Source of the DNA: a virus | Lineage: Duplodnaviria; Heunggongvirae; Uroviricota; Caudoviricetes | Virus record (IMG/VR): IMGVR_UViG_3300029613_000341 | Location: 1-42,454 of that record | Reading direction: 5' to 3' (one strand) | Length of the DNA stretch: 42,454 nucleotides | Shown here: piece after piece, positions 1-41,757 of the stretch | Numbering within the stretch: the stretch's first letter is position 1 | How the letters are laid out: each line of letters starts with the position of its first letter | Made by a program: the position numbers and the translations under genes | Notes under the pieces: model-generated | Database searches by the model: none | What the model was told of the DNA's origin: nothing | The model's input: only the letters and a program-made list of their open reading frames with translations

Positions 1-1719
1 ATGATTTTTAGGGATAGCTTGAGAGTATTACCTTATGGTCGAGTAGATAATGATTTCTTCCAGATAGAAGAAAGACGTTCATGGAATGCAGGGCGATATT
101 ATTGGTCTAATAGAAGGATTTTTGGTTATATTGGAATTACTCAATCCAGTAATAAAGAGCTGAAAGATAAGTCGGGGAGAGAGGGATTCATAAGAAACCA
201 GGCTGCAAGAGAACTGAAAACTATTATATCTAATTTGTTAACTGAACTTGCTGATAGATTTTTTGGTTCACGTTCTGATGACCGTAAAGAGCTTTTAGAA
301 CAAGTTAAGCGTGAAAAAGAGTTAAGAAAATCTGCTCAACAACAAGCTCGAAAATCAACACAAAAAAGTTTTTCAGAAGCTTTGAAGAATCAGACACCAG
401 TTCTTGATGCTTCCTTGGAGGCTGTTAAAAGGCTGAAAACTAAGCTTGATAAAACTGATGGTTCGTTAGATTTAAACTATCTTAAAATTATAGACAGTGA
501 TCTTACAAACTTAGATGCGTTGCGCAGTGAAATTAAAACGCCTATCAAACCTCCAAAACTTGGAATGTATGAAGAGAAATATAGAGACTACAGAGATAAA
601 TTTAATGAGTTCTCTGCGTATATTCTACAAATGAAGTTAGCAATTAATAAACTTGATTCTGAATTAAATAAACTTGAGCCTTCATTGTCAGCGAAAAATC
701 ACCTTGAAAAAAATCAAGGTATTATTAATTCTAAACTAACTAAGTTTAATAACACGATAGAGGAGAAGATACATTCTCTTTTAAAAAAATGGGCCGATGA
801 AATAAAGGTTGATCGAAGTGATTATTATGCTAAAACTATATCAGTTGTTGATTCAATAGATAATGATTCACAAATTGAAAATGTGTTTAATTTGCTCGAT
901 AGTTTATATGTTGAGTCAGTTGATACCCTAACTTTCAAATATCAATCAATAATAAAAGGTCTCGATAGATTATTTGAAGGTATAAACTTAGATTCAGCAT
1001 TCTCATTATCTGAAGAAGAACGCTCATATTTTGAAGAAAAAGCTAAAAGTTTAAACGCGCTTGCACAGTTAGGTATTAGTGTTGAGATAATATCTCATGA
1101 ACTTGAAGAAATGGATTCTATGGTAACCAGAGGACTAAACTCTCTTCCTACTTCTGTAAAAGAACACCCTGGTTTTTCATTGGCGTTAAATGCTCACAGA
1201 TCGCTTACTCAACAAATACGTTTCTTATCACCTTTGAAAATATCAGGTTATCAATCCAGGCAGAGAATAACTGGAAAAAATATCATGGATTATGTCCTGA
1301 AGTTCTTTGGGGAGCGTTTCGAACGGCAACGAATAACTATTGAATTTAGTGAAGAGTTTAAGCAAATCGCAATAACAGATATACCATCAAGGATCTATCC
1401 TGTTTTTACTAATATTATCAACAATGCAATGTATTGGGTCAGTCTGTCAAATAATAGGCTCATAAAGATTGGTTTTGTGAATTCTTTGGTTATCATAGCA
1501 AATTCTGGTCCGGCAATTGATACCGATGATATCCCGCGACTATTTGAACTATTTTATAGCAAAAGAGCAAATGGACATGGGGTAGGTCTGTATCTATGTC
1601 GAGAAAACCTTGCTGTTGCACATCATAAAATATGGTATTCAGAACCTGATGAAGGCGATAACTATTTAATAAAAGATGGCGCTAATTTTGTGATCCAGTT
1701 CAATGGAGTGGAGTTCTAA
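1..1719 (+). CDS. Histidine-kinase-like protein: coiled-coil-rich region, HisKA-like H-box, C-terminal GHKL (HATPase_c-like) ATPase; ORF is open to base 1, so the 5' end may lie outside the window
   Basis: Long ORF in frame 1. H-box-like I-S-H-E-L-E-E (His codon 1096-1098). C-terminal ~130 aa carry N-box-like NIINNAMYW, G1-like ANSGPAID and G2-like GHGVGLYL motifs. Visibly AT-rich compared with the phage backbone. Confidence 0.55.
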   Translation: MIFRDSLRVLPYGRVDNDFFQIEERRSWNAGRYYWSNRRIFGYIGITQSSNKELKDKSGREGFIRNQAARELKTIISNLLTELADRFFGSRSDDRKELLEQVKREKELRKSAQQQARKSTQKSFSEALKNQTPVLDASLEAVKRLKTKLDKTDGSLDLNYLKIIDSDLTNLDALRSEIKTPIKPPKLGMYEEKYRDYRDKFNEFSAYILQMKLAINKLDSELNKLEPSLSAKNHLEKNQGIINSKLTKFNNTIEEKIHSLLKKWADEIKVDRSDYYAKTISVVDSIDNDSQIENVFNLLDSLYVESVDTLTFKYQSIIKGLDRLFEGINLDSAFSLSEEERSYFEEKAKSLNALAQLGISVEIISHELEEMDSMVTRGLNSLPTSVKEHPGFSLALNAHRSLTQQIRFLSPLKISGYQSRQRITGKNIMDYVLKFFGERFERQRITIEFSEEFKQIAITDIPSRIYPVFTNIINNAMYWVSLSNNRLIKIGFVNSLVIIANSGPAIDTDDIPRLFELFYSKRANGHGVGLYLCRENLAVAHHKIWYSEPDEGDNYLIKDGANFVIQFNGVEF

Positions 1720-1720
1720 T

Positions 1721-3469
1721 ATGACAGTGGCAAATTATAATTCTCTTGTCCAGAAAACTTTCTGCGAAAATGCAATTCGTTCCGTTGTCATGATTGATGA
1801 CGATTTTCTGACGTATTCTGAATCAATCAGGGCGTTGAATAACGAAGTTGATTTAGACTACAACAAAATTGACTCATCTAAACGAGCCGCTACTCTTGAG
1901 AGCTTTTTTCAATCTAAAAATATGATTTGTGATGTTGACAATGGTTCTGTTAATTTCGATGTGGATCGGATTAGAAAATCAGATCTTATTATTGTAGATT
2001 ATCATCTTGATAATAATGCACCTGATAAAACACTTAAACTATTACAAGATTTGAAAGACTCCGATCATTTAAATATGATTGTAATATATACTAGAGAGAA
2101 TTTAGAAACGGTTTGGATGCAGATATCATCGACTCTCAAAGGTGCTCTGGATATCAACAGCTTGATCATTGACTACGATAATGAAGATGTCCAAAGTTAT
2201 TGGGAAGACGTTGTATTACCGAACTTAAATGATAATGGTAATAAAGCTCTCACAAGAGATGAAACAATAGCCTATATTAAAGACAGTAAGCCTTGTAGAA
2301 GAATTAAAAGATTAATACATGATGATGCTGTGTTGGAGGATCAAAAGGATAAAAACTTCATTGCAAAAATGATTGCAGAATATGCTGTGTCTAGAAATGC
2401 AATTATTTCTAGCAACACATCTGGCAATGTCATTCGGGGTGATGAAAGCGGAGTAAAATGGATTCAATGTGGTAATATCTTTGTCTCCCTATTTCATAAG
2501 GTTCAAGATGATCATGAAAACGATGGAGATAGGATTTGGCAAACTCTCAATGATTCTCTCATTGAATGGAAACCATCTTATTATCAGTTAATAAAATCTG
2601 AAATTCAGAATGCAATCGAAGCTGAGGCTTTATCTTTTGTAAATCATTTGGCTAACGATCATTACGGTCAAGCTGCGTGGTTAAATGAGATATTAAAATC
2701 AGACTCGCCTGATATTAGATGTAGAAATATTGACTTTGTATTTGGTAATTTATCAGAAGAGCTTTATCAAAGACTTAAAAATAATAATACGCTGGATGAA
2801 TTTATCAAAAGTGTTTTTGATAGCTATTCAAATGAATACGCTAACAGCGGAGTTGCTGCATTGCTCCAATATTGCTCTTCAAAAATGGATCTGCCATCAA
2901 ATAATGATACTTATCACGAAATGTATCATGCTTTAAATATGAATTTGTCTTCAAAGAATTTTGAAGATGGTCATATTTCTACTGGCACTATTTTCTTTGA
3001 TACAGAGTCGAACAAATGGTATTTATGTGTATCTGCGGCATGTGATTTGGTTCCTACTCAGGGTAACGACCCTCACCATGTAAGATTAAGTCCGCACAGG
3101 CTCATTAAAGTTCTGGAGCTTTTTAACGCCAGTCAGAGTAAAGCATTGCCATTTGCTGAACATTCGAAATATATATATGTAATGCATAAAAATCAAAGAA
3201 AATATCTCTCTATTTTCGAAGGGGATAAAACGCTTCCTGTTGTTGATTATATGGTGGTGTTGAATCATGGAACAACAGTTGATGGCGAAGAAAAAAATAT
3301 TATTTCTGCCGTGTTTTTAAGTAATATGGATGGCAACGTGCAAAATGTTCCTGTCCGACTCAAACTTAAATCTCAACTGAGAACTGGTTATGCAGAAAGA
3401 TATCAGGCTATAGCGTCTCAGTATAGCTCAAGGATTGGTGTGGATTATGTATCAATGATGCTACCATAA
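1721..3469 (+). CDS. Receiver (REC)-like domain protein with ~450-aa C-terminal domain of unknown function
   Basis: ATG at 1721 one base after the upstream stop (TAA 1717-1719), GGAG-type RBS just upstream. N-terminal ~130 aa have the receiver pattern: VVMIDDD acidic pair, DLIIVDYHL with candidate acceptor Asp (codon 1997-1999), MIVIYT. Remainder has no motif I recognise. AT-rich. Confidence 0.5.
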   Translation: MTVANYNSLVQKTFCENAIRSVVMIDDDFLTYSESIRALNNEVDLDYNKIDSSKRAATLESFFQSKNMICDVDNGSVNFDVDRIRKSDLIIVDYHLDNNAPDKTLKLLQDLKDSDHLNMIVIYTRENLETVWMQISSTLKGALDINSLIIDYDNEDVQSYWEDVVLPNLNDNGNKALTRDETIAYIKDSKPCRRIKRLIHDDAVLEDQKDKNFIAKMIAEYAVSRNAIISSNTSGNVIRGDESGVKWIQCGNIFVSLFHKVQDDHENDGDRIWQTLNDSLIEWKPSYYQLIKSEIQNAIEAEALSFVNHLANDHYGQAAWLNEILKSDSPDIRCRNIDFVFGNLSEELYQRLKNNNTLDEFIKSVFDSYSNEYANSGVAALLQYCSSKMDLPSNNDTYHEMYHALNMNLSSKNFEDGHISTGTIFFDTESNKWYLCVSAACDLVPTQGNDPHHVRLSPHRLIKVLELFNASQSKALPFAEHSKYIYVMHKNQRKYLSIFEGDKTLPVVDYMVVLNHGTTVDGEEKNIISAVFLSNMDGNVQNVPVRLKLKSQLRTGYAERYQAIASQYSSRIGVDYVSMMLP

Positions 3470-3540
3470 TTATTATATTTTAGGCGTGGTGATTTTTTTT
3501 CGCCATGCCTATTTTATATTTATCATCACAATGATGTTGT

Positions 3541-3957
3541 TTATTTTTGTTTAAGTCTTCTAAGCTTCATGCATTCTAATGAGAATAATAATAGAGTTGT
3601 GCTGTATATAAAGCCAGAGTTAGTTAATAACTTTAAATTTAATGCTTCAGGATTTTCACTGAGAAAGTGAAAGGCATAAACTAAGTATACAGCTAAAGTA
3701 GCCGTTCCAATTGTTGGTCCAATATCGCCTTGATCATGAGGTTCAAGGTTTACATTGAACTTGAAGATTAGCCATTCAAATCCCCAAGTAAAAAAAACAA
3801 CTAATATCATGGCTGCGAATAATTTCGCGATGTTATCTGCTGATGGATTCATCAGAACAGATTGTTTCTGAAAAAATTCACAAAGTGAGAGTCCGAAAAA
3901 AATAAAAAAAAGTGGTCTGGAACTAAATTTTTCAAAAACTTTGAATAGGGTTTCCAT
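3541..3957 (-). CDS. Small hydrophobic (membrane) protein, unknown function
   Basis: 138-aa ORF with several hydrophobic stretches (LFFIFFGLSL, LFAAMILVVFFTWGF, IGTATLAVYLVYAF), directly downstream of and co-oriented with the P4-type integrase; AT-rich. Confidence 0.35.
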   Translation of the reverse strand: METLFKVFEKFSSRPLFFIFFGLSLCEFFQKQSVLMNPSADNIAKLFAAMILVVFFTWGFEWLIFKFNVNLEPHDQGDIGPTIGTATLAVYLVYAFHFLSENPEALNLKLLTNSGFIYSTTLLLFSLECMKLRRLKQK

Positions 3958-3995
3958 TTTCTTTACCTTCAGGATTATATTAGCTATTCTGATAC

Positions 3996-5225
3996 TTAGG
4001 CTACCAGAGCATTTGATCTTTGAGCTTGAACGTAATCACTCCACCATTGCATCAAACTCTGTCGCTCTATCAGATATTCTGCACGATTGTATGCTGCGAT
4101 AATTTCATCTTTTTTCGAGTGGGCAAGCGCTGCCTCAAGAACTTCAGCTCTGAATTTACCAGACTCCTCTGCCGCTGTTCGTGCAATAGAACGCATACCG
4201 TGAGCTACAAGCTCGCCTCCGAACCCCATTCGGATGATAGCTGCGTTGGCTGTTTGTTCATGCATATGATTAAGAGGCGCTTTTATGCTGGGGAAAACCC
4301 ATTCTCTATGCCCACTTATTGATTTCATTAATTCAAGGATGCGCAAAGCTTCTTTACTCAAAGGAACTTTGTGAAGCTTTTTCATTTTCATGAAATCAGC
4401 AGGAATGTTCCAAATGCTGTTGGTTGTATCAATATCAGACCACCTTGCGCGAACGGCTTCACCCGGACGAACCCATGTCAACAATTGCCATTCAATTAGC
4501 ATACGTGTTTCCAACCGGATTGACGCATTCGTCAAAGATTCCATAAACCTTGGCAATTCGCTTGGGGGAAGGGCAGGCATATTTTGCTTTTTTGGTTTAC
4601 TGAATCTTTGACCAAGGTTGTCAGCCGGGTTGAACTCAATAAGTTCTTCAGTAGCTGCCCACCGGAAGATTTCATTCAGACGTGAAATGATACGGCGTAG
4701 AGTTTCCAATACGCCTCGTTGCTCAATAGGATCAAGGTGTTGTTTTAAGAGCTTAGGTCGGATCTCATTGATAGGGACATTACCCAGACCGGGAAAGACA
4801 TTTCTCTCTAAGCTGCGCCAGATGTCTGCTGCATGGTCTTGTGAGATACCTGATGTCTTTACCTTCTCATCTAACCATTTCCGCGCTACGGCTTGGAGAG
4901 TGTGCTCAGTAGCACTCTTTAATGCCTTCGCCTTATCGTTGTTATGGATTTGGGGATCAACACCATTTGCCAGAAAGGAGAGATATTCATCACGTAAGGC
5001 TCTGGCTCTTGCAAGGGTAAGGTGAGGATATGTCCCAAGGCTCATTTTGGTTCTTTTCTTGCTCACTGGTACTGCATACCTGAAATACCAATTTTTCTTG
5101 CCTCCTTTCGCCAAAGGAGCGATTCGTAGAATCAGACCATCACCGTCAAACAAGTTGATTTCTTTATCGGCTGGCTTGGTGCTTTTGATTTCAGTGTCAG
5201 TGAGCTTCTTAGCGATTTTTGCCAT
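3996..5225 (-). CDS. int: Tyrosine recombinase/integrase, P4 (CP4-57 IntA-like) family
   Basis: ORF 3996-5267; most likely start is the Met of MAKIAKKLTDTEIK (5225). N-terminal arm-binding region typical of P4-family integrases, C-terminal catalytic motifs (AHGMRSIART, AAYNRAEY). Lies ~170 bp from the ssrA 3'-end fragment, the usual tmRNA-int arrangement. Confidence 0.85.
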   Translation of the reverse strand: MAKIAKKLTDTEIKSTKPADKEINLFDGDGLILRIAPLAKGGKKNWYFRYAVPVSKKRTKMSLGTYPHLTLARARALRDEYLSFLANGVDPQIHNNDKAKALKSATEHTLQAVARKWLDEKVKTSGISQDHAADIWRSLERNVFPGLGNVPINEIRPKLLKQHLDPIEQRGVLETLRRIISRLNEIFRWAATEELIEFNPADNLGQRFSKPKKQNMPALPPSELPRFMESLTNASIRLETRMLIEWQLLTWVRPGEAVRARWSDIDTTNSIWNIPADFMKMKKLHKVPLSKEALRILELMKSISGHREWVFPSIKAPLNHMHEQTANAAIIRMGFGGELVAHGMRSIARTAAEESGKFRAEVLEAALAHSKKDEIIAAYNRAEYLIERQSLMQWWSDYVQAQRSNALVA

Positions 5226-5319
5226 TTTGGGACCCTCGGTTTTTGGACCCTTCTTAGTGGGTCCCATTCAGGGTGCCATAACTCGTAGTTCTCAGCAATT
5301 CTCACTGGACGACAATAGA

Positions 5320-5356
5320 CGTAAAAAAGCCCGCAGAGCTTGTGCTGTGTGGGCTT
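5320..5356 (-). terminator. Imperfect hairpin plus T5 on the minus strand; probable remnant of the original ssrA terminator
   Basis: Minus strand reads GCCCACACAGC-ACAA-GCTCTGCGGGC followed by TTTTT, ~35 bp downstream of the displaced ssrA 3' fragment. Confidence 0.3.
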
Positions 5357-5390
5357 AGTAGACTTCATTGAACTTCAAACAACTAAAAAG

Positions 5391-5435
5391 TGGTGGAGCT
5401 GGCGGGAGTTGAACCCGCGTCCGAAATTCCTACAT
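5391..5435. repeat. att direct repeat (45 bp identical to the ssrA 3' end at 41395-41439)
   Basis: TGGTGGAGCTGGCGGGAGTTGAACCCGCGTCCGAAATTCCTACAT occurs at both positions; the copies diverge immediately afterwards (ACC here, CCT at 41440). Confidence 0.85.
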
Positions 5436-5549
5436 ACCATTTTTAATATAGTGAAAACAGTTATTTATATTTAAAAACAGAATGTTAGTATTTTGCGGTG
5501 TTTGTCCGTTTTAGGCATTTTTAATGCTCTGCCGCCAAAATGCCGCCAC

Positions 5550-6569
5550 TTATTTACCTTGAGAATCTATAGGTAAGATCCCCTTAAAAATCAAAAAATC
5601 TGGATCGTAAGCATAATTGGCTAAAAAATCACCGTTATTGGCAGTTGCTTGGAAAATAATTGTATTTTGATCAATTAGCATGTACAGAGATATCAATATA
5701 TCTCGTAATCCACGAAACATTTCTTTTATTTCTTTTTCATCTGAAAATGATGTTTCTATTCCTAAGTTTGATATCGGATCAAAAATCTCAAATTTGTTGA
5801 CTTCTCTTTCATAATTAACTCCTAGTTCTCTACACAGCCATACCACTTGTGCTTCAATGTTCTCTAAATTAGATATGTTAACTTGTTTTGGGTAAAGCTG
5901 ATTGTATCTTGCTATTTCATGCCCAATGTTGTTATATATATTTTCTAATTTTTCAAGGAATGATTTATCAACTTCATTGTTATATCCAGTGGAGATTGAG
6001 GATTTTGTGAATATTTTTTTATATAATGAGTAGGTATGAACTACAGATAGTTTAATTGTGTCTTTTTCGAAAGTTGTATTATCTCGACGAGAAAGGGTAA
6101 ATGACGGTAACGTTTTAAACATATCCGAATAATTCTTGAGGTGAGCGTAGTAAGCATCACTGCGGTTTTTCTCAGTCACTAGATCTATCTGTTGCTGTGT
6201 TTTCCTAATTTGATTTTCCGTTTGTATTGTTCTGTGAATGTTAGCGACTATAGCTACAAAGGGTATCGAAAGGGAAAGAAGAGCGATAGGCAACTTGCTT
6301 ATTTCAATGAAGTTTGAAAATCCATCAGCATCAAATTGAGGAGAGTGTCCCATCCATGAGAATATACCGAAGTATAAGGATGAGATAATAGGTATTCTGA
6401 TGGATTGTTTAAATAAATTTTGTTTTGTTAGCCTTTCCTCAGTCATTTCAAAATAATTATTATTTTTGTTTTTTGTGTATTCAATAAATAGATATATTAA
6501 ATAAAGAATTATAAGGAACGTAGATATTTCTGGTTTTTTTATATAGCTAATTACGAATTCTTGAGTCAT
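5550..6569 (-). CDS. Membrane protein of unknown function (prophage moron between attL and int)
   Basis: ORF 5550-6581; the Met at 6569-6567 overlaps the int stop as ATGA (TGA 6568-6566), suggesting translational coupling. About three N-terminal hydrophobic helices, ~200-aa soluble C-terminal part. Strongly AT-rich. Confidence 0.5.
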   Translation of the reverse strand: MTQEFVISYIKKPEISTFLIILYLIYLFIEYTKNKNNNYFEMTEERLTKQNLFKQSIRIPIISSLYFGIFSWMGHSPQFDADGFSNFIEISKLPIALLSLSIPFVAIVANIHRTIQTENQIRKTQQQIDLVTEKNRSDAYYAHLKNYSDMFKTLPSFTLSRRDNTTFEKDTIKLSVVHTYSLYKKIFTKSSISTGYNNEVDKSFLEKLENIYNNIGHEIARYNQLYPKQVNISNLENIEAQVVWLCRELGVNYEREVNKFEIFDPISNLGIETSFSDEKEIKEMFRGLRDILISLYMLIDQNTIIFQATANNGDFLANYAYDPDFLIFKGILPIDSQGK

Positions 6570-7594
6570 GGTGTGGTCCATTTTAATCTATATAAAGGGT
6601 TTTTTGATACTGCATCCTCTAAATGATCAGGTGCAAAATGTGCATAAACCATAGTCATTTTTATATCCGAGTGACCAAGGATGTCGCGCAACACGAGTAT
6701 GTTTCCGCCGTTCATCATAAAATGGCTAGCGAATGTATGGCGCAGTACGTGGGTGCATTGGCCCTCCGGTAGATCTATACCTGCCCGTTTTACTGCTCGT
6801 TCAAAGGCTTTTCTACATGGTGAGAATAACTTCCCTCTGTTCTTTGGGAGTTCGTCATACAGCTCCTGTGATATGGGTACTGTTCTGTTTTTCTTGCCTT
6901 TGGTCTTTGTATAAGTAATTCGGTATTTCGATATTTGGTGGCCCTGTAGGTTTTCTGCTTCACTCCATCGCGCACCAGTAGCCAGGCATATTTTTGCAAT
7001 CATTAGTAGGCTGGTGTTTTGAGATTCGGCGCAGGCATTAAGCAGGCGTTTGATTTCGTCCGTGGAAAGAAAAGCCAATTCACCTTCAGCAATTTTGAAG
7101 GTTGGAAGCCCTGCCAGTGGGTTTGGTGCGGACCAGTGCCCTAGTTTTTTCAATGTACCGAACACCGATGACAGATTGCGTTGTTCAAGATTTACCGTGC
7201 GGGGCTTAACCGGTGACATGAGCACGCCATCTTCGTTTTTGATCTCACCTTTTAATCTGGCTTCCCGGTACTTTGTGAAATCACCTGCTGTCAATTCAGA
7301 AGCGATGGGATCGCCAAGCCCATTACAAATGATTTTTAGCTTAGCCATTAATCGCTTAGGGTCAGCGAGTGTCTGACCGTACAGGGAATACCATTGCTCA
7401 ATCACTTCTGACAGTGGTCGCCGATCTTCCTTTTCTCCCAGCCAAGGTTTCTTGTTTACCTCATCCATGGTGAAATTCTCAAACGCAATGGCTTCGCCTT
7501 TCGTCGCAAATTGTTTGCGTACGCGTTTGCCATCTCTCCCGTTTGGGTAGCATTCACATAACCACTTTCCGTTCGGCTGTTTTCTGATCGTCAT
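6566..7594 (-). CDS. int: Phage integrase (P2/186-type tyrosine recombinase)
   Basis: 342-aa ORF with catalytic motifs HVLRHTFASH and LGHSDIKMTMVYAHF; recalled similarity to P2 Int; immediately downstream of cI. Confidence 0.9.
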   Translation of the reverse strand: MTIRKQPNGKWLCECYPNGRDGKRVRKQFATKGEAIAFENFTMDEVNKKPWLGEKEDRRPLSEVIEQWYSLYGQTLADPKRLMAKLKIICNGLGDPIASELTAGDFTKYREARLKGEIKNEDGVLMSPVKPRTVNLEQRNLSSVFGTLKKLGHWSAPNPLAGLPTFKIAEGELAFLSTDEIKRLLNACAESQNTSLLMIAKICLATGARWSEAENLQGHQISKYRITYTKTKGKKNRTVPISQELYDELPKNRGKLFSPCRKAFERAVKRAGIDLPEGQCTHVLRHTFASHFMMNGGNILVLRDILGHSDIKMTMVYAHFAPDHLEDAVSKNPLYRLKWTTP

Positions 7595-7596
7595 GA

Positions 7597-8235
7597 TTAG
7601 ATGCTCTTAATCACTTTTACCACACGCCCTACAACGTCTACGTCATCAACTGCACATTCAAAGGTTGTTTCTTCCTGATGAACAACAAGCTTATTTCCGG
7701 GAATTCGAGCTACTTTTACGATGCTTTTCACTCCATCAATATCAACAAGCCAGGAGCCATTACTGATCTGTTTTACAGATACATCAACAATAAAACTTTC
7801 TGTTGTCGTTTGTATGAATAGATAGTTTGACGAGTCGCCCTCAACCAACCTGCTATCTAATAAAATTTCGTCATATGATTGAAGTTCACCATTTCTTAAC
7901 TCTGTGTATTTGATACTGGGAGCTACGATTTTAGAAAGTGGTCTAATTGTGACGTCATTATCATTTTTGAGAATGTTTACGTCACTGTTATCTGCATACA
8001 TATCACCCTGTCCGGTTGCCAACCAAAGAAGCGAGATCCCGGTTTCTAGTGCACATTGAATTACCCATTCTGCTGGAAAACTATCTCTTAAGTATCTGTT
8101 TGCCATGGTACTTTTTGATACTTTTAAGTGTTCGCAGAGTTGTTGGCGTGAGCTGAAATTGTAGGCTTTTATCAGCCTGTTGATGGCATCACGACCCCCA
8201 CTATCGTTTCCACCCTTGATTAGACTCATAATCAA
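7597..8235 (-). CDS. cI: Immunity repressor, phage 186 CI-like
   Basis: Matches my recollection of 186 CI over its length (NRY.R, CALETG..L.WL.TG.G, GLWLVDI.G..SI, FEC..DD....GRVV.V); divergent from the early operon. Confidence 0.8.
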   Translation of the reverse strand: MIMSLIKGGNDSGGRDAINRLIKAYNFSSRQQLCEHLKVSKSTMANRYLRDSFPAEWVIQCALETGISLLWLATGQGDMYADNSDVNILKNDNDVTIRPLSKIVAPSIKYTELRNGELQSYDEILLDSRLVEGDSSNYLFIQTTTESFIVDVSVKQISNGSWLVDIDGVKSIVKVARIPGNKLVVHQEETTFECAVDDVDVVGRVVKVIKSI

Positions 8236-14277: not shown

Positions 14278-14591
14278 GAAACGTTGCCCCCAGGAGGATT
14301 CATTCTGATGGGGGCTAGTTTGGGCAACGAGTGAAATAAGGTGTAAGGTCATTTTGATAAATGATCGTCTGCTTTGTGCAAGATGCAAACGTTTCTTCTG
14401 CTAACTTTCGTTAATTAACGAATGGCAGACTAATTCGCAACGGATAATCTGAATTTTGTAAGATTATGGGCATTTCTATAAAATTTACTAATAATAACCT
14501 TACAATGTACACTACCGATTGAATTTTCCATAGTTGGCCTTTGGCTCTACTTACCATCTATGTTTATGTATTTTATCAAAATGGACTAAAA

Positions 14592-16484
14592 ATGAACAAT
14601 ACGTACATCAAAGACTATATAGAATATTACCTTAGCCTTACAACTGAACCTCAATACGCCATTATGCTTAAAGGTGCTTGGGGATCAGGTAAAACTTGGT
14701 TCATTGAACAAGTTCTTGAAGAATATAAGCAGAAGAATTCAGAGTTTAAATTTCTAAAAGTGAGTTTGTATGGCGTCAACTCTATTAAACAGATTGAAGA
14801 TGAGTTCTATCGTCAACTTCATCCTGTCCTATCAAACAAAGCCCTTATCTTTGGTGCAAATGTACTAAAAAATACGCTTAAGGCTACTTTCAAGATCGAT
14901 CTCAATGGCGATAATAAATCTGACGTTGATGTCAATACCAATGTTCCCACCATTAATCTTAACGATTTTAGTAGAAAACCAGATGGTTTTGTGCTGGTCT
15001 TTGATGATATCGAGAGAGCTGGTATAGATTTACCAATTTTATTTGGATATATAAACCACTTTGTAGAAGTAAACGGATACAAAGCGATCTTGGTTGCCAA
15101 TGAAGAAGAAATAATCAATAGAGAAAAGCGAATAAATAATGATGATGAGAAATCTAGCAGCGAATACATGAGAACAAAAGAAAAGCTTGTTGGTAAAACA
15201 TTTGAAGTAACGTCAGATTTACATAGTGCTTGTAATGTTTTTTTGGGCGTAATTAGCAGTTTACACGTTGCTAATATATTTAAAGAAGATATGCAGGCCA
15301 TAGAAGACATCTATGTGTCGGCGAAATATAATAATCTAAGACACTTGAGGCAGTTCTTTCTTGATGTACAACGCATCATTTCCCTTTTGGGAAATAAATA
15401 TGTCAGCAACGACGATTTTATGAGGGTATTTTTCCAGCAGTTGTTAATTTTCTCGATAGAGTACCGGGGAGGGAACCTTAACTACGAGGAATTCGATTCA
15501 ATCAGCAATGTTAATTATGGTATGTTTTTAGGTAAAGAGCGTACCAAAACTAAGTATGACATGATCGTCGAGAAATATTCATCTCCTGTATTAACCGAGA
15601 AGTTACTGGATGGTGCGTACTGGAGGGAGCTAATCTGTGATGGAAAGGTAACGAGTGAACTTCTCGCTCAGTTGGATATTACGCGATTTTTTAGAAGCAC
15701 CGATGCCCAAGCATGGGAGTATTTGTGGAACTATCGAGAACTTAATGAAACTATGCTTAATGAGCAGTACGCCATTGCCAAGGATAATCTATTTTCAGGT
15801 AAGATCACTTCCTTAGGTGAACTCCTGATGACCGCGAGTATTTTGCTGGACATGGCGAAAGAAGGTCTAACAACAGATGATGTTCATGATCTCATAAATG
15901 AGACAAAACAGAATATAAATAATTATTATAATAGACTTAGAGCTGAAGATATACATAAGGAATATGCGCAAACGCATTATAACGAATTAAGGGCATGGCG
16001 TGGCTTTGGTTTTCTTGACAGGGATAGCGATGAATTCAAACTCATTATTGAGCATATTGAGATAGCGAAGAAGAAACGGTTTGATGAATCAATTCCGGAA
16101 TTTGCGTTGCAGTTCAGCGATGAGTTGCAAAGGGGAAACTTATCGTTTGTATCTGAATTGAGTCATTCTAATAATAGGCAGTTAAATCTTCATAATGTGC
16201 CTTTTTTACACTTGGTTCCTCCTGAAGTTTTCATTGAAAGCTATAGGAAACTTGACCCAGTCCTCATGAGGAAACTGGCATTTAGCTTGCGGAATCGTTA
16301 TTCTGATGGGGATGCTAGAACCAGACTGACCGAAGAATACAACTGGTTGATTAACCTAAAAGAGATAGCTGTAGATTTCACTCAAAACGCAGCCAATAAC
16401 TCCTTTCAGGTTTTTCACGTAAAGTTTTTTATTGACTATGTATTAACTAGCGCAATCAAATTCTTTACTGAGGGAACTGATTAA
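14592..16484 (+). CDS. P-loop NTPase (Walker A GAWGSGKT, Walker B VLVFDD; possibly KAP-type), ~630 aa
   Basis: ATG at 14592 (ORF open from an alternative TTG at 14541); Walker A and B motifs present; long C-terminal region without motifs I recognise; strongly AT-rich; followed by a terminator. Confidence 0.7.
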   Translation: MNNTYIKDYIEYYLSLTTEPQYAIMLKGAWGSGKTWFIEQVLEEYKQKNSEFKFLKVSLYGVNSIKQIEDEFYRQLHPVLSNKALIFGANVLKNTLKATFKIDLNGDNKSDVDVNTNVPTINLNDFSRKPDGFVLVFDDIERAGIDLPILFGYINHFVEVNGYKAILVANEEEIINREKRINNDDEKSSSEYMRTKEKLVGKTFEVTSDLHSACNVFLGVISSLHVANIFKEDMQAIEDIYVSAKYNNLRHLRQFFLDVQRIISLLGNKYVSNDDFMRVFFQQLLIFSIEYRGGNLNYEEFDSISNVNYGMFLGKERTKTKYDMIVEKYSSPVLTEKLLDGAYWRELICDGKVTSELLAQLDITRFFRSTDAQAWEYLWNYRELNETMLNEQYAIAKDNLFSGKITSLGELLMTASILLDMAKEGLTTDDVHDLINETKQNINNYYNRLRAEDIHKEYAQTHYNELRAWRGFGFLDRDSDEFKLIIEHIEIAKKKRFDESIPEFALQFSDELQRGNLSFVSELSHSNNRQLNLHNVPFLHLVPPEVFIESYRKLDPVLMRKLAFSLRNRYSDGDARTRLTEEYNWLINLKEIAVDFTQNAANNSFQVFHVKFFIDYVLTSAIKFFTEGTD

Positions 16485-16788: not shown

Positions 16789-16896
16789 CGCGCGCTGTAT
16801 GCCTGAAGTGGCTAAAATAGTATCTGTCATAGGTACAACTTAGTGTAGTATCATCCATATAATCCATTGAAATATAATCGACTCTCATTAGAGGTG

Positions 16897-17895
16897 ATGA
16901 TGAACGGAATCTGGTACGAAAACACTCATACACGCATTCCTAATTTTGAAACAACAGTACATCAAAAGCACAAATTCGGTTACGCTTATGAAACAACAAG
17001 TCATTTTGTGCATCTGTATGGGCGTGACGTGGGATTTAATGTAATATCAGTTGGGTTAACTGTTATTGAGCAACGAAGTGGAACTCTCAATGATTGGGTT
17101 CGGAGAGTATTTGGGGCTCAGAACATATCTCCTTTAGATAATGAAATTGGACATGTAACTAGGGGAGTGTGGCGGCCATCCTTATATTATGTCAATGATA
17201 CAGAAACAGCATTAGGTATCGATGAGTTTGAAAAAAGAGCAACAGAGCAAGCTCTAAGAGTTTTGATAGAAAAACTCGATGATATTTTTCTATATGTAGA
17301 ACCAAGTGCCCATGGTTTGATTTCTTACAGTCATAAATGTAGAGAGCTATTAATTCTTGCTTGTACTGAGGTTGAAAATCAATGGGTGTCAATCATTGGT
17401 AATTCGAATTTATCTCGTTCAAATGGTCGATACTCCACAAATGATTATGTGAAATTATTAGATAAGTGTTATTTGTCTGAATATAAAATTCAATATTTGA
17501 ATTATGACGGATTAAGGCATTTCAAACCTTTTGATGGGTGGAATGCAAGTACCCCTACAACATCTTTGTCATGGTATAATGCATATAATAAAACTAAACA
17601 TGATAGATCAGGAGCATTCCACTTTTCCACTTTAGAAAATGTGATGGATGCAGTTGCTGCTTGTGTTGTAATGTACTGTGTAAAATATGGCCCGTTTAGC
17701 TTATTGGAAGCCAATACGTCTCTATCAACGATCGTTAATCAAAACTTTTCAATTTCATTAGATAATAGCAATCCAGCAAGTTATTACATTCCTGAAATTG
17801 AACTTCCACCGGATACAAGAACGGATTTATTAATTTATGATTGTTATCGAGAAAACCATAATAAAGCATGGGTCACTGATCCCCTAGTGCTCTAA
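16897..17895 (+). CDS. Hypothetical protein (~332 aa), unknown function
   Basis: ORF 16867-17895 (alternative TTG); ATG at 16897/16900 with GAGGTG RBS; AT-rich; no motif I recognise. Confidence 0.5.
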   Translation: MMNGIWYENTHTRIPNFETTVHQKHKFGYAYETTSHFVHLYGRDVGFNVISVGLTVIEQRSGTLNDWVRRVFGAQNISPLDNEIGHVTRGVWRPSLYYVNDTETALGIDEFEKRATEQALRVLIEKLDDIFLYVEPSAHGLISYSHKCRELLILACTEVENQWVSIIGNSNLSRSNGRYSTNDYVKLLDKCYLSEYKIQYLNYDGLRHFKPFDGWNASTPTTSLSWYNAYNKTKHDRSGAFHFSTLENVMDAVAACVVMYCVKYGPFSLLEANTSLSTIVNQNFSISLDNSNPASYYIPEIELPPDTRTDLLIYDCYRENHNKAWVTDPLVL

Positions 17896-17951: not shown

Positions 17952-18578
17952 TTATATATCAATAGAGTTTTGAAATTTTAATAACTGCCATCTTGTTAAT
18001 AGTGGTTTTATTGCTATGTTGTGTTGGGTATTTATTTTTAAACCTTCGAATTTCGAATATCCATTTTCCAAGGCTTCCACTGAAAAATGAATGGTTTTTG
18101 TTATCGGGTTTATAGCACAAAGATTTAGGTCATATAAAGTATGAATGTCACTTCTGAGCAATAATCCATTGCTAATATGATTGTGACTATCGTTTCGATA
18201 TACATTAATGTGAGCAGCATCAAGAATATCAACAAGCTTACAGCCCGTAACCGCACAAGTAGGATTTGATTTTAATAGCTGGTCGCGAAATGTTTTTTGC
18301 CCACTTCGTTGTTTTATTTGCCGTTCTACAATTTGCCGTTGATCTTCACCCATTAAAGTGGGGGTGTCTTTATCAGCTTCGCTGGCGTTGAGCTCCAGAA
18401 TAATAGTATGTTGGGCGGTAAGCAAAGCAACAGCCCATTGATAGTTAACTTCTTGGATGGACATTTGCCCATTGTAGCGTGGAGTTTCATCTATAAATTG
18501 TGACATTGTAATATTGGATAATTTACGGTACTGGTTGCCGCAGTATGCTATAAATTCTTTAGCTGGCTCAAAAACCAC
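17952..18578 (-). CDS. HNH endonuclease domain protein (C-terminal part of an apparently split gene)
   Basis: HNH motif CAVTGC...LDAAHI...NGLLLRSDIHTLYDLNL; annotated start is GTG; the frame stays open upstream to a stop at 18669-18671, overlapping the end of the upstream ORF. Confidence 0.7.
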   Translation of the reverse strand: MVFEPAKEFIAYCGNQYRKLSNITMSQFIDETPRYNGQMSIQEVNYQWAVALLTAQHTIILELNASEADKDTPTLMGEDQRQIVERQIKQRSGQKTFRDQLLKSNPTCAVTGCKLVDILDAAHINVYRNDSHNHISNGLLLRSDIHTLYDLNLCAINPITKTIHFSVEALENGYSKFEGLKINTQHNIAIKPLLTRWQLLKFQNSIDI

Positions 18579-27282: not shown

Positions 27283-27721
27283 ACTGCAGAAAGTGGACGA
27301 CTGGCTGAGTGCCTTGCTGGCGAATCTGGAGCCAGCCGCAAGAAGCCGCATGATGCGCCAGCTGGCGCAGGAACTGCGCCGGATACAGCAGCAGAACATC
27401 AGGATGCAACGCAATCCAGATGGCAGTAGTTATGAACCGCGACGGGTAACAGCACGCAGTAAAAAGGGGCGCATCAAACGTCAGATGTTTGCAAAGCTGC
27501 GAACCACAAAATACCTGAAAACTGCCGCCAGCGCCGATTCTGCCAGCGTGCAGTTTGAAGGCAAGGTACAGCGCATTGCCCGTGTTCACCATTACGGCTT
27601 GCGTGATCGCGTCAGCCGTAAGGGGCCACAGATACGTTATGCTAAACGTAGGTTACTTGGAATTTATGATACTGATTTTGATATTATAGAAGAGATAATC
27701 ATGAATTTTTTGATTCGTTAG
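27275..27721 (+). CDS. S: Tail completion protein S (P2 gpS family)
   Basis: GTG start; recalled similarity to P2 S (LLANLEPAAR..MMRQ.AQELRR.QQ.NI..QRNPDGS.Y.PR.VTARSK.GRI.R.MFAKLRTT.Y, QRIARVHHYGLRDRVSRKGP). Confidence 0.85.
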   Translation: MAELQKVDDWLSALLANLEPAARSRMMRQLAQELRRIQQQNIRMQRNPDGSSYEPRRVTARSKKGRIKRQMFAKLRTTKYLKTAASADSASVQFEGKVQRIARVHHYGLRDRVSRKGPQIRYAKRRLLGIYDTDFDIIEEIIMNFLIR

Positions 27722-28880
27722 ATTCATTAATTTTCTTAAAGTATGAGTCTATTTTTTCAATTAATAAATTGATGCTTTTTATAAATTCTTTTGTTTCTTT
27801 CTCTGTTGGTTCATGTGATGTATGAGCTATTTTGTCACGTAATTCTTTCCTATTTTTATTTGCATGTTGCCACTCAAGTGGCGCAATTTCGGGTACAGAG
27901 ATGTTAAAGAGTTGTTTGAATAGTTTTTTACATCTATCATCGAACTTCCAGTTTTTATTTAATGTTTCTTTTGTCTGGCATTCATTGATACCATTGCGAT
28001 GAAAGGCATTAATAATTTTTCTGAGAATATAGCTTTCAAGGCCTGCTGATGCTTCAATTACGGCTGATCTAAATGCACCTTTATGAACAAGATTGTCTGC
28101 TCTAATCAATAATAGTTCAGGATGTTCATTGAATTCATTTGACATTAAACGTTTTTTGAAATTATCAATGAGACTTTCATCGTGTTTATACCAGCTTTCT
28201 CTCATTAATGGGGTGATTACTCCAACTAAAGGAATTGCACTTATCTTAATACCATCGCAATAATGCTCTTGTAACACTCCGTTGGTAAATCCTGAGCCAA
28301 CTTGATAAAGAGATATCTCGTCTGCAAATTGATCTTTAAAGGCAACTCTATACTGTTTTATAAAGTGGTTTATTATTCCGATGCATTCCTCTGATCTTTT
28401 AGGTGGAAATATCTCTCTAGCAGTTTTTATTTTTCTCTCTAACTCTATTTTTTTATCTATATCTTGCTGGCTCATTTTGGATAGGAACATCTCAGCATCT
28501 TCCACAGATGGGAAGTTATCTTCTTTCCTTATTTGGTTTCTTATAGAGTTGATTAGTTCTTCATGTGATATTTCTAAAAGGTCAAAACATTCCCAATAGT
28601 TGGCGAGAGAAATAATAGTCCGGCATTTCATTATCCCTCTTTCATTTGTGTGATGTGGTAGTAGTTGTTCTCTGGTACCGATTAATAGGGTTTGAGGGAA
28701 TAAGCTTGCATCTTTAAATAGTGCATAGTAATCGTTGTGAACTGTTAAGCGTAAATGGTTATTTTCATATAGAAAATCATAATCACCATCTGGAATATTG
28801 AGGACATAAGGCAACTCGACCAAGTAACGTGCAGCAAAGATCATTTCAGTCATCTCCATATGAGAATTCAATTGTGCCAA
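27699..28880 (-). CDS. Hypothetical 393-aa protein (moron between S and V, antisense to the late operon)
   Basis: Long minus-strand ORF in the otherwise plus-strand late region; very AT-rich; occupies the slot I recall as orf30 in P2; no motif I recognise. Confidence 0.55.
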   Translation of the reverse strand: MAQLNSHMEMTEMIFAARYLVELPYVLNIPDGDYDFLYENNHLRLTVHNDYYALFKDASLFPQTLLIGTREQLLPHHTNERGIMKCRTIISLANYWECFDLLEISHEELINSIRNQIRKEDNFPSVEDAEMFLSKMSQQDIDKKIELERKIKTAREIFPPKRSEECIGIINHFIKQYRVAFKDQFADEISLYQVGSGFTNGVLQEHYCDGIKISAIPLVGVITPLMRESWYKHDESLIDNFKKRLMSNEFNEHPELLLIRADNLVHKGAFRSAVIEASAGLESYILRKIINAFHRNGINECQTKETLNKNWKFDDRCKKLFKQLFNISVPEIAPLEWQHANKNRKELRDKIAHTSHEPTEKETKEFIKSINLLIEKIDSYFKKINESNESKNS

Positions 28881-41394: not shown

Positions 41395-41439
41395 TGGTGG
41401 AGCTGGCGGGAGTTGAACCCGCGTCCGAAATTCCTACAT
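41395..41439. repeat. att direct repeat (phage core overlapping the ssrA 3' end)
   Basis: Identical to 5391-5435. Confidence 0.85.
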
Positions 41440-41757
41440 CCTCGGTACTACATGCTTAGTCAGTCTTTACATTCGCTTGCCAGCTGCGGACGGACACGCC
41501 ACTAACAAACTAGCCTGATTAAGTTTTAACGCTTCAACCCCAGGCAGGGCTTCCACGCGATCTCTTTTGGGTTTGACCTCTCTTGATCCCCGTCCTAAGA
41601 GCGGAGGCTAGGGAGAGAGGGCTCTAAGCAGGTTATTAAGCTGCTAAAGCGTAGTTTTCGTCGTTTGCGACTATTTTTTGCGGCTTTTTACGAGGCCAAC
41701 CGCCCCTCGGCATGCACCTTGGGTTTCGCAAATCCCGTCGAATCCAGAATCAGCCCC
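41395..41757 (-). ncRNA. ssrA: tmRNA (SsrA), 363 nt
   Basis: Reverse complement begins GGGGCTGATTCTGGATTCGACGGG and ends ...GTTCAACTCCCGCCAGCTCCACCA; contains the tag reading frame GCAAACGACGAAAACTACGCTTTAGCAGCTTAA (ANDENYALAA-stop); matches E. coli ssrA as I recall it. Confidence 0.95.

Follow-up and report, generated by a model that had tools for sequence, protein, structure and literature searches.

The first 3,469 nucleotides of the IMG/VR virus record IMGVR_UViG_3300029613_000341 (Caudoviricetes; the whole stretch of 42,454 nucleotides that was analyzed is called the window) carry two adjacent plus-strand genes, a histidine-kinase-like (HK-like) gene (gene 1, 1–1719) and a response-regulator-like (RR-like) gene (gene 2, 1721–3469). 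We conclude, with a probability of about 0.75, that this pair represents the 3′ end, now decayed, of a methylation-linked conflict module on an island integrated at ssrA. That the pair is a remnant of the family defined by the Pfam domains HEF_HK and Response_reg_2 is very likely. An initial annotation, made from the sequence alone, had proposed it as a candidate anti-phage signaling system. The system is not new, as both domains are already Pfam families from a 2021 paper that linked the pair to restriction-modification (R-M) and to paraMORC. The claim of defense survived in part: a conflict or defense role is plausible for the family, and the system here is incomplete, with its methylase and ATPase module deleted. 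The pair is of a kind already known, with Pfam models and a descriptive paper in existence. New here are the truncation, a near-obligate three-gene architecture in an independent sample, and a tentative effector fold.

Gene 1 was placed at codons 417–988 of a 988-aa protein, as the 3′ remnant of an HK-like gene, by homologue alignment, blastn against an intact island (L002), and the lengths and Pfam domains of homologues. Its open reading frame (ORF) has no stop codon back to base 1 and encodes 572 aa; RefSeq names the product as a 572-aa "ATP-binding protein." Full-length HK-like homologues have 988–997 aa and an N-terminal HATPase_c_3 domain, as do the closest homologues outside E. coli (99% identity; Klebsiella, Serratia, and Salmonella), which are 988 aa long. 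The window ORF aligns to residues 417–988 only, lacks the first 42% of the gene, and begins within a strongly conserved block (alignment with P0036 and others). The intact island L002 has an integrase, a 138-aa ORF, and the RR-like gene as in the window, then the full 988-aa gene. The end of a C5 DNA methyltransferase gene overlaps the start of the 988-aa gene, and a relaxase and more integrases lie further out. Window and L002 are 99% identical by blastn from L002 position 11249 onward. The suspicion that something essential lay upstream of base 1 is true of the intact relatives, where an N-terminal ATPase module and a C5 methylase are found.

At the DNA level the pair is 99.6% identical to a RefSeq locus annotated as "ATP-binding protein" plus "response regulator receiver domain," and it was found in 560 of 5,426 complete E. 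coli genomes (~10%). As a check on the truncation, the methylase and the 5′ half of the kinase-like gene were searched against all complete E. coli genomes. This search gave 559 matches, and all matches listed begin at L002 position 11127 (~codon 376). The C5 methylase was found in none of the 559 E. coli genomes with the allele of the window, and neither a C5 methyltransferase nor another R-M gene was identified beside the pair among the window ORFs (ORF list and Pfam). In strain WEC, an IS3 insertion sequence (IS) ends just upstream of the remnant, and the frame has no stop between the IS end and the annotated ATG; this junction is present in 484 E. coli genomes. An O111:H8 strain lacks IS3 at this point, and a truncated alpha-amylase pseudogene directly adjoins the remnant there. 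Judged by these sequence comparisons, the E. coli short form of the HK-like gene is a true truncation. In our reading, one deletion in the E. coli lineage represented by the window took the methylase and the first ~375 codons (the GHKL ATPase module) of the kinase-like gene, and left a 572-aa ORF read from an internal ATG together with an intact receiver-effector gene.

Short annotations of this gene outside E. coli have another origin in at least the Salmonella case. For the HK-like gene of Salmonella Bareilly (P0062; L005, 3984–6983), the annotated length is 572 aa. The ORF is in fact intact at 999 aa, which makes the annotation a start-site error, seemingly carried over from the start of the truncated protein that is abundant in E. 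coli. The 572-aa annotations in other genera may be the same error. A "group 2" without the HATPase_c_3 module has been counted as an architecture of the family (PMC8011034); of its short forms, the Salmonella example is a start mis-call, whereas that of E. coli is a real truncation. A 5.6-kb contig (DAIPZW010000118.1) filed under a "Bacteroidales bacterium" metagenome-assembled genome encodes an RR-like protein 100% identical to that of gene 2. Upstream of it, close to the end of the contig, lies a short HK-like ORF. Binning contamination from E. coli is the probable explanation.

We surveyed the intact family with a profile of the RR-like protein, using one genome per GTDB species, and recovered 62 loci from many phyla. 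Neighbors were counted with blastp at the 45 loci that had enough flanking sequence. A full-length HK-like gene lies immediately upstream of the RR-like gene at every one of these (45/45), each with the HATPase_c_3 (paraMORC) module, and a C5 methylase stands beside the pair at 44 of 45. Methylase, HK-like, and RR-like genes follow in this order on one strand at 36 loci, and the methylase is convergent and downstream at seven. A Vsr gene occurs at 19 of the 62 loci and is often the next gene after the RR-like one. No other neighbor, including any separate nuclease, is conserved across the survey loci, which leaves the two large proteins as the expected seat of the effector activity. Read from sequence, the intact module is a three- or four-gene operon with a C5 methyltransferase, a 988-aa fusion of a paraMORC ATPase, a coiled coil, and the predicted dimerization/histidine-phosphotransfer (DHp) and catalytic (CA) domains of a kinase, a putative receiver-effector, and often Vsr. 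E. coli SE15 has such an intact operon, as do assemblies whose encoded proteins NCBI files under Salmonella, Klebsiella, and Serratia.

HEF_HK (PF19191) and Response_reg_2 (PF19192) were defined computationally by Bellieny-Rabelo, Pretorius, and Moleleki (2021, Genome Biol Evol; PMC8011034), who found, over 644 regions, 91.6% linkage between HK-like and RR-like genes. They also reported that C5 methylases, Vsr, and further R-M genes are enriched near the pair, and that there is a relation to paraMORC ATPases. That study was purely computational and had E. coli sequences among its examples. The window pair shares both defining domains in adjacent genes with the family, whose members are soluble, are carried on islands, and have links to C5 methylases, Vsr, and R-M genes. 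It differs in having neither the N-terminal HATPase_c_3 of the dominant "group 1" architecture nor a neighboring methylase. A defense or conflict role is plausible given the association of the family with a C5 methylase, in many cases also with Vsr, and with mobile islands, and we consider such a role probable for the family as a whole.

The intact operon of E. coli SE15 (NC_013654.1, 4541494–4548686) is a diverged paralog of the one from which the window pair derives. It encodes a C5 methylase, a 989-aa HK-like protein, and a 607-aa RR-like protein, and is followed by a gene for a phosphorothioate-binding SBD-HNH endonuclease, a neighbor also seen in the Salmonella locus L005. Its locus tags are ECSF_RS22155, RS22150, and RS26660. 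Around 205 complete E. coli genomes match the SE15 allele.

What remains of gene 1 contains the entire kinase core that the initial annotation had recognized. Pfam places a HEF_HK (DHp-like) domain at aa 356–414 (1066–1242, plus strand; PF19191, 26.1 bits, cutoff 24.1) and a HATPase_c catalytic domain with N, G1, and G2 boxes at aa 462–553 (1384–1659, plus strand; PF02518, E = 1.8e-11, 44.9 bits). The candidate phospho-histidine, in the motif ISHELEE, is His366 (codon 1096–1098). It aligns with the invariant His782 of full-length homologues, and the N, G1, and G2 box residues are likewise invariant across the homologue alignment. The family profile matches solved histidine-kinase catalytic domains, best ThkA (3a0t/3a0r; E about 1e-11) and also FixL and HK853. 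NCBIfam returned nothing beyond sub-threshold, generic histidine-kinase matches.

Gene 2 is uninterrupted in the window and encodes 582 aa (1721–3469, plus strand; ORF list and start context), with 100% identity to a RefSeq "response regulator receiver domain" protein. Its ATG at 1721 is separated by one base from the gene 1 stop codon (TAA, 1717–1719), as originally noted, and is preceded by a GGAG-rich stretch. The receiver-like reading of its N-terminus was also borne out. A Response_reg_2 domain occupies 1775–2245 (plus strand; PF19192, E = 3.7e-31, 109 bits, cutoff 27) and was matched in 37 of 37 homologues. The protein has the acidic pocket, acceptor Asp, Thr, and Lys of a CheY-like receiver: D26/D27 (codons 1796–1801), the candidate acceptor D93 (codon 1997–1999), T124, and K260 are all invariant across homologues. 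K260 (codon 2498–2500) sits just past a later strand, from which we infer that it belongs to the receiver fold. A terminator-like hairpin with a 12-bp stem and T run (3481–3511, plus strand) closes the two-gene transcription unit.

The C-terminal domain of gene 2 is the candidate effector. It is conserved and beta-rich, spans aa ~395–582 (2903–3466, plus strand), and has the invariant motifs HALN, GT, CxxxxCDxVP, QxRxxYxxR, and RxGVD within its ~190 aa. Fold search tentatively pointed to a CcdB/MazF-like toxin fold, which we treat as a lead and not as a finding. No Pfam domain was found in the C-terminal 400 aa of 37 homologues, even at E ≤ 10, and hhalign of the C-terminal alignment against small profiles of MazF/Kid/EndoA/ChpBK and CcdB yielded a probability below 1%. 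The domain thus differs from CcdB, MazF, and Kid in showing no sequence or profile similarity to them, in being fused to a receiver and a helical linker instead of paired with an antitoxin, and in its CxxxxCD, QxR, and RxGVD motifs, which are not the known functional residues of MazF or CcdB. A profile search with the domain against 1.84 billion representatives gave 640 matches. The 150 matches listed are all receiver-fused proteins of 560–680 aa or fragments, and therefore add no new context for the domain.

Loss of both the methylase and the sensor ATPase makes it most likely that the remnant in the window is inert. Relative to the intact allele, the remnant of gene 1 shows 5 non-synonymous and 3 synonymous changes (5:3), gene 2 shows 1 and 12, and the integrase 2 and 22; the ratios of gene 1 and gene 2 differ (Fisher P = 0.014). 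The 5:3 ratio fits relaxed constraint on gene 1. Gene 2 is itself broken in at least one lineage. In E. coli O103:H2 FWSEC0007 an IS3-family element interrupts it after ~codon 453, and the gene is annotated as two pseudogene pieces. Contig breaks within this gene seem to be common, to judge by a cluster of 1,605 gene 2 fragments labeled "partial" in draft assemblies.

The alternative that the remnant has been kept for a function would have a sensor-less kinase, made from the internal ATG, act with the receiver-effector as a reduced module, for example as an addiction or abortive-infection device or as a partner of the intact paralogous system in other strains. Several observations speak for this or against simple decay. 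The remnant retains its entire DHp and CA core, and an in-frame ATG has AGGA just 5′ of it (seen in L001), so a sensor-less kinase could be made. The two genes are tightly coupled, with a terminator after gene 2. All five non-synonymous changes in gene 1 fall within a variable coiled-coil stretch; polarization with outgroups assigned only one change in this gene to the E. coli lineage, and was largely uninformative because the sites are variable. Gene 2 is whole and 99.8%–100% identical in most of the 560 E. coli genomes, as the pair is across them, and the single non-synonymous change among 13 in gene 2 could mean that selection is still acting. The upstream junction also lies outside the window, with the truncation inferred from identical sequences in other genomes. 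Finally, literature searches yielded no experimental test of the HEF_HK/Response_reg_2 family, in phage defense or otherwise, which bears on the conflict role itself.

Other observations speak against retention. The near-identity of gene 2 could reflect either recent common descent or retained function, and descent within one E. coli clade explains it equally well; the synonymous changes may belong to the intact lineage. The IS in gene 2 of O103:H2 and the many draft assemblies that break within the gene also count against it. No promoter was identifiable in the window, where promoter-like sites are no commoner than in shuffled sequence. We regard a retained function as improbable, put residual activity of the remnant in this particular window at a similarly low level, and hold to the reading of a decayed 3′ end.

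A second alternative is the one that first drew attention to the locus, namely that the pair is a complete, stand-alone anti-phage system of the Detocs kind, with a soluble kinase as the infection sensor that phosphorylates an effector fused to a receiver. Detocs consists of a sensor kinase (DtcA), a stand-alone receiver (DtcB), and a receiver-effector (DtcC) (Rousset et al. 2023, bioRxiv 10.1101/2023.01.24.525353). The general logic is shared: a His-Asp phosphorelay (predicted here), a receiver fused to an effector that does not bind DNA, and a defense-type context on an AT-rich island with an integrase alongside. Kinase core and receiver are both there and translationally coupled, and the C-terminal domain is effector-like, with a tentatively toxin-like fold. 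Membership in Detocs did not hold up. The 416 N-terminal residues found in 45 of 45 well-resolved relatives are absent from gene 1, the almost obligatory methylase partner is gone, and gene 2 is broken by an IS in at least one lineage. No receiver-only ORF is present in or around 1–3540 (ORF list), in agreement with the initial annotation, which had seen no buffer gene. The pair also has no purine nucleoside phosphorylase (PNP) domain or other known Detocs effector and no tetratricopeptide repeat (TPR) sensor, and no sequence relationship to Detocs was detected. The sensor of the intact relatives is instead a MORC-like GHKL ATPase, in a system tied to a DNA methylase. PADLOC, run on the window proteins, a full-length homologue, and the island neighbors, matched only the methylase; neither window protein matched a model at a meaningful E value, with the presence of Detocs models in that release not verified. 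Every testable Detocs feature failed, and we keep the analogy while rejecting the membership. A complete system of this kind is very improbable.

The deleted part of gene 1 has its counterpart in paraMORC proteins. GHKL ATPases of the MORC/paraMORC type in R-M operons with a cytosine methylase and Vsr were described by Iyer, Abhiman, and Aravind (2008; PMC2292703), and the full-length relatives share both the N-terminal GHKL (HATPase_c_3) module and this operon context. They differ from paraMORC in that the HK-like protein has a receiver protein as its partner and contains, besides a DHp helix, a second GHKL domain of histidine-kinase type. The window copy has lost the paraMORC module itself. 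Three other assignments were considered and rejected. paraMORC3 (Shedu type I-D) joins a GHKL domain to a DUF4263 nuclease, which is another architecture (PMC12137116). The methylation-associated defense system (MADS) is unrelated, with eight genes and a type I-like specificity subunit. The pair is not an R-M system either: the methylase is absent here, and a nuclease domain, sought in both proteins by Pfam and fold search, was found in neither.

An ordinary housekeeping two-component regulator of gene expression is suggested by the annotation names alone ("response regulator receiver domain" and "histidine kinase"). Against it, Pfam and fold search found no DNA-binding output domain in the pair, across phyla the family is accompanied by a C5 methylase and Vsr, and the pair occurs in only ~10% of complete E. 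coli genomes and lies on an integrase-bearing, AT-rich island. The regulator reading is thus already contradicted and extremely improbable.

If the decayed end of a conflict module is the right reading of the window, the intact system may work in four steps. The methylase would mark self DNA. The MORC-like ATPase module would read the state of DNA and thereby control autophosphorylation of His782 (His366 in the window ORF). The phosphate would pass to the receiver residue Asp93, and phosphorylation would free the C-terminal domain, tentatively CcdB/MazF-like in fold, which would then act by cell arrest or by attack on nucleic acid. Joint loss of methylase and sensor in one deletion would then be a loss that a cell survives. 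The phosphorelay and toxin steps are rather unlikely to be correct exactly as drawn. Somewhat short of an even chance, the intact family may constitute an uncharacterized immune or addiction class in which methylation status is read by a MORC-like ATPase and passed through a His-Asp phosphorelay to a toxin-fold effector. The chance is slim that this is so and that the E. coli remnant is also still expressed, with some activity left as a sensor-less pair of kinase and toxin.

The island setting agrees with the initial annotation, except for the position of ssrA. GC content is 0.32–0.35 across 1–4000, and a P4-type tyrosine integrase (3996–5267, minus strand) has the Pfam domains Arm-DNA-bind_3, Phage_int_M, and Phage_integrase. 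A 138-aa hydrophobic ORF between gene 2 and the integrase (3541–3957, minus strand) is island cargo outside the conserved core: its place beside the RR-like gene is shared by only a few close enterobacterial loci and not by the wider family. The functional ssrA (tmRNA) gene, an integration hotspot, was located by ARAGORN at 41395–41757 (minus strand). The initial annotation had placed the pair at the ssrA hotspot, next to the integrase. The integrase was confirmed, but the functional ssrA lies 36 kb away, with a P2-like prophage between it and the island integrase. A 45-bp copy of the ssrA 3′ end at 5391–5435, an exact direct repeat of 41395–41439, forms an att repeat between the older island and the prophage, and the two copies bracket the prophage. 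This repeat indicates that the locus is a tandem array of ssrA, P2-like prophage, and older P4-integrase island. Rfam gave no match on 1–8000.

The P2-like prophage has cargo of its own. One AT-rich block (GC content of 0.35–0.40) contains a 647-aa KAP-family P-loop NTPase (14541–16484, plus strand) that matches the PADLOC candidate defense family PDC-S49 (E = 1e-159), an adjoining 342-aa ORF without a family match (16867–17895, plus strand), and a nearby 208-aa HNH_2 endonuclease (17952–18578, minus strand; E = 6e-9). A 343-aa AT-rich ORF (5550–6581, minus strand) lies between the prophage att repeat and the P2-type integrase, with only faint SLATT/2TM-effector hints. In E. coli WEC this slot holds a gene named gapS1, and it therefore looks like a variable cargo hotspot. 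In the prophage late region, a 393-aa ORF (27699–28880, minus strand) coincides with a sharp AT-rich dip (GC content of 0.355) and has no convincing family match.

The value of the window lies mainly in clearing up an attractive candidate, and not in a new Detocs-like system. The intact family combines epigenetic self-marking with a MORC-type ATPase and a two-component phosphorelay, three elements that usually occur apart. Should its operon prove to be a defense or addiction system, the precedent set by Detocs, of a phosphorelay as immune wiring, would extend to methylation-gated systems, and the family could supply a bacterial model for MORC-like ATPases that read DNA state. The common E. coli truncation is a natural experiment, which suggests that joint loss of methylase and sensor is not lethal. 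The intact family is a reasonable experimental target.

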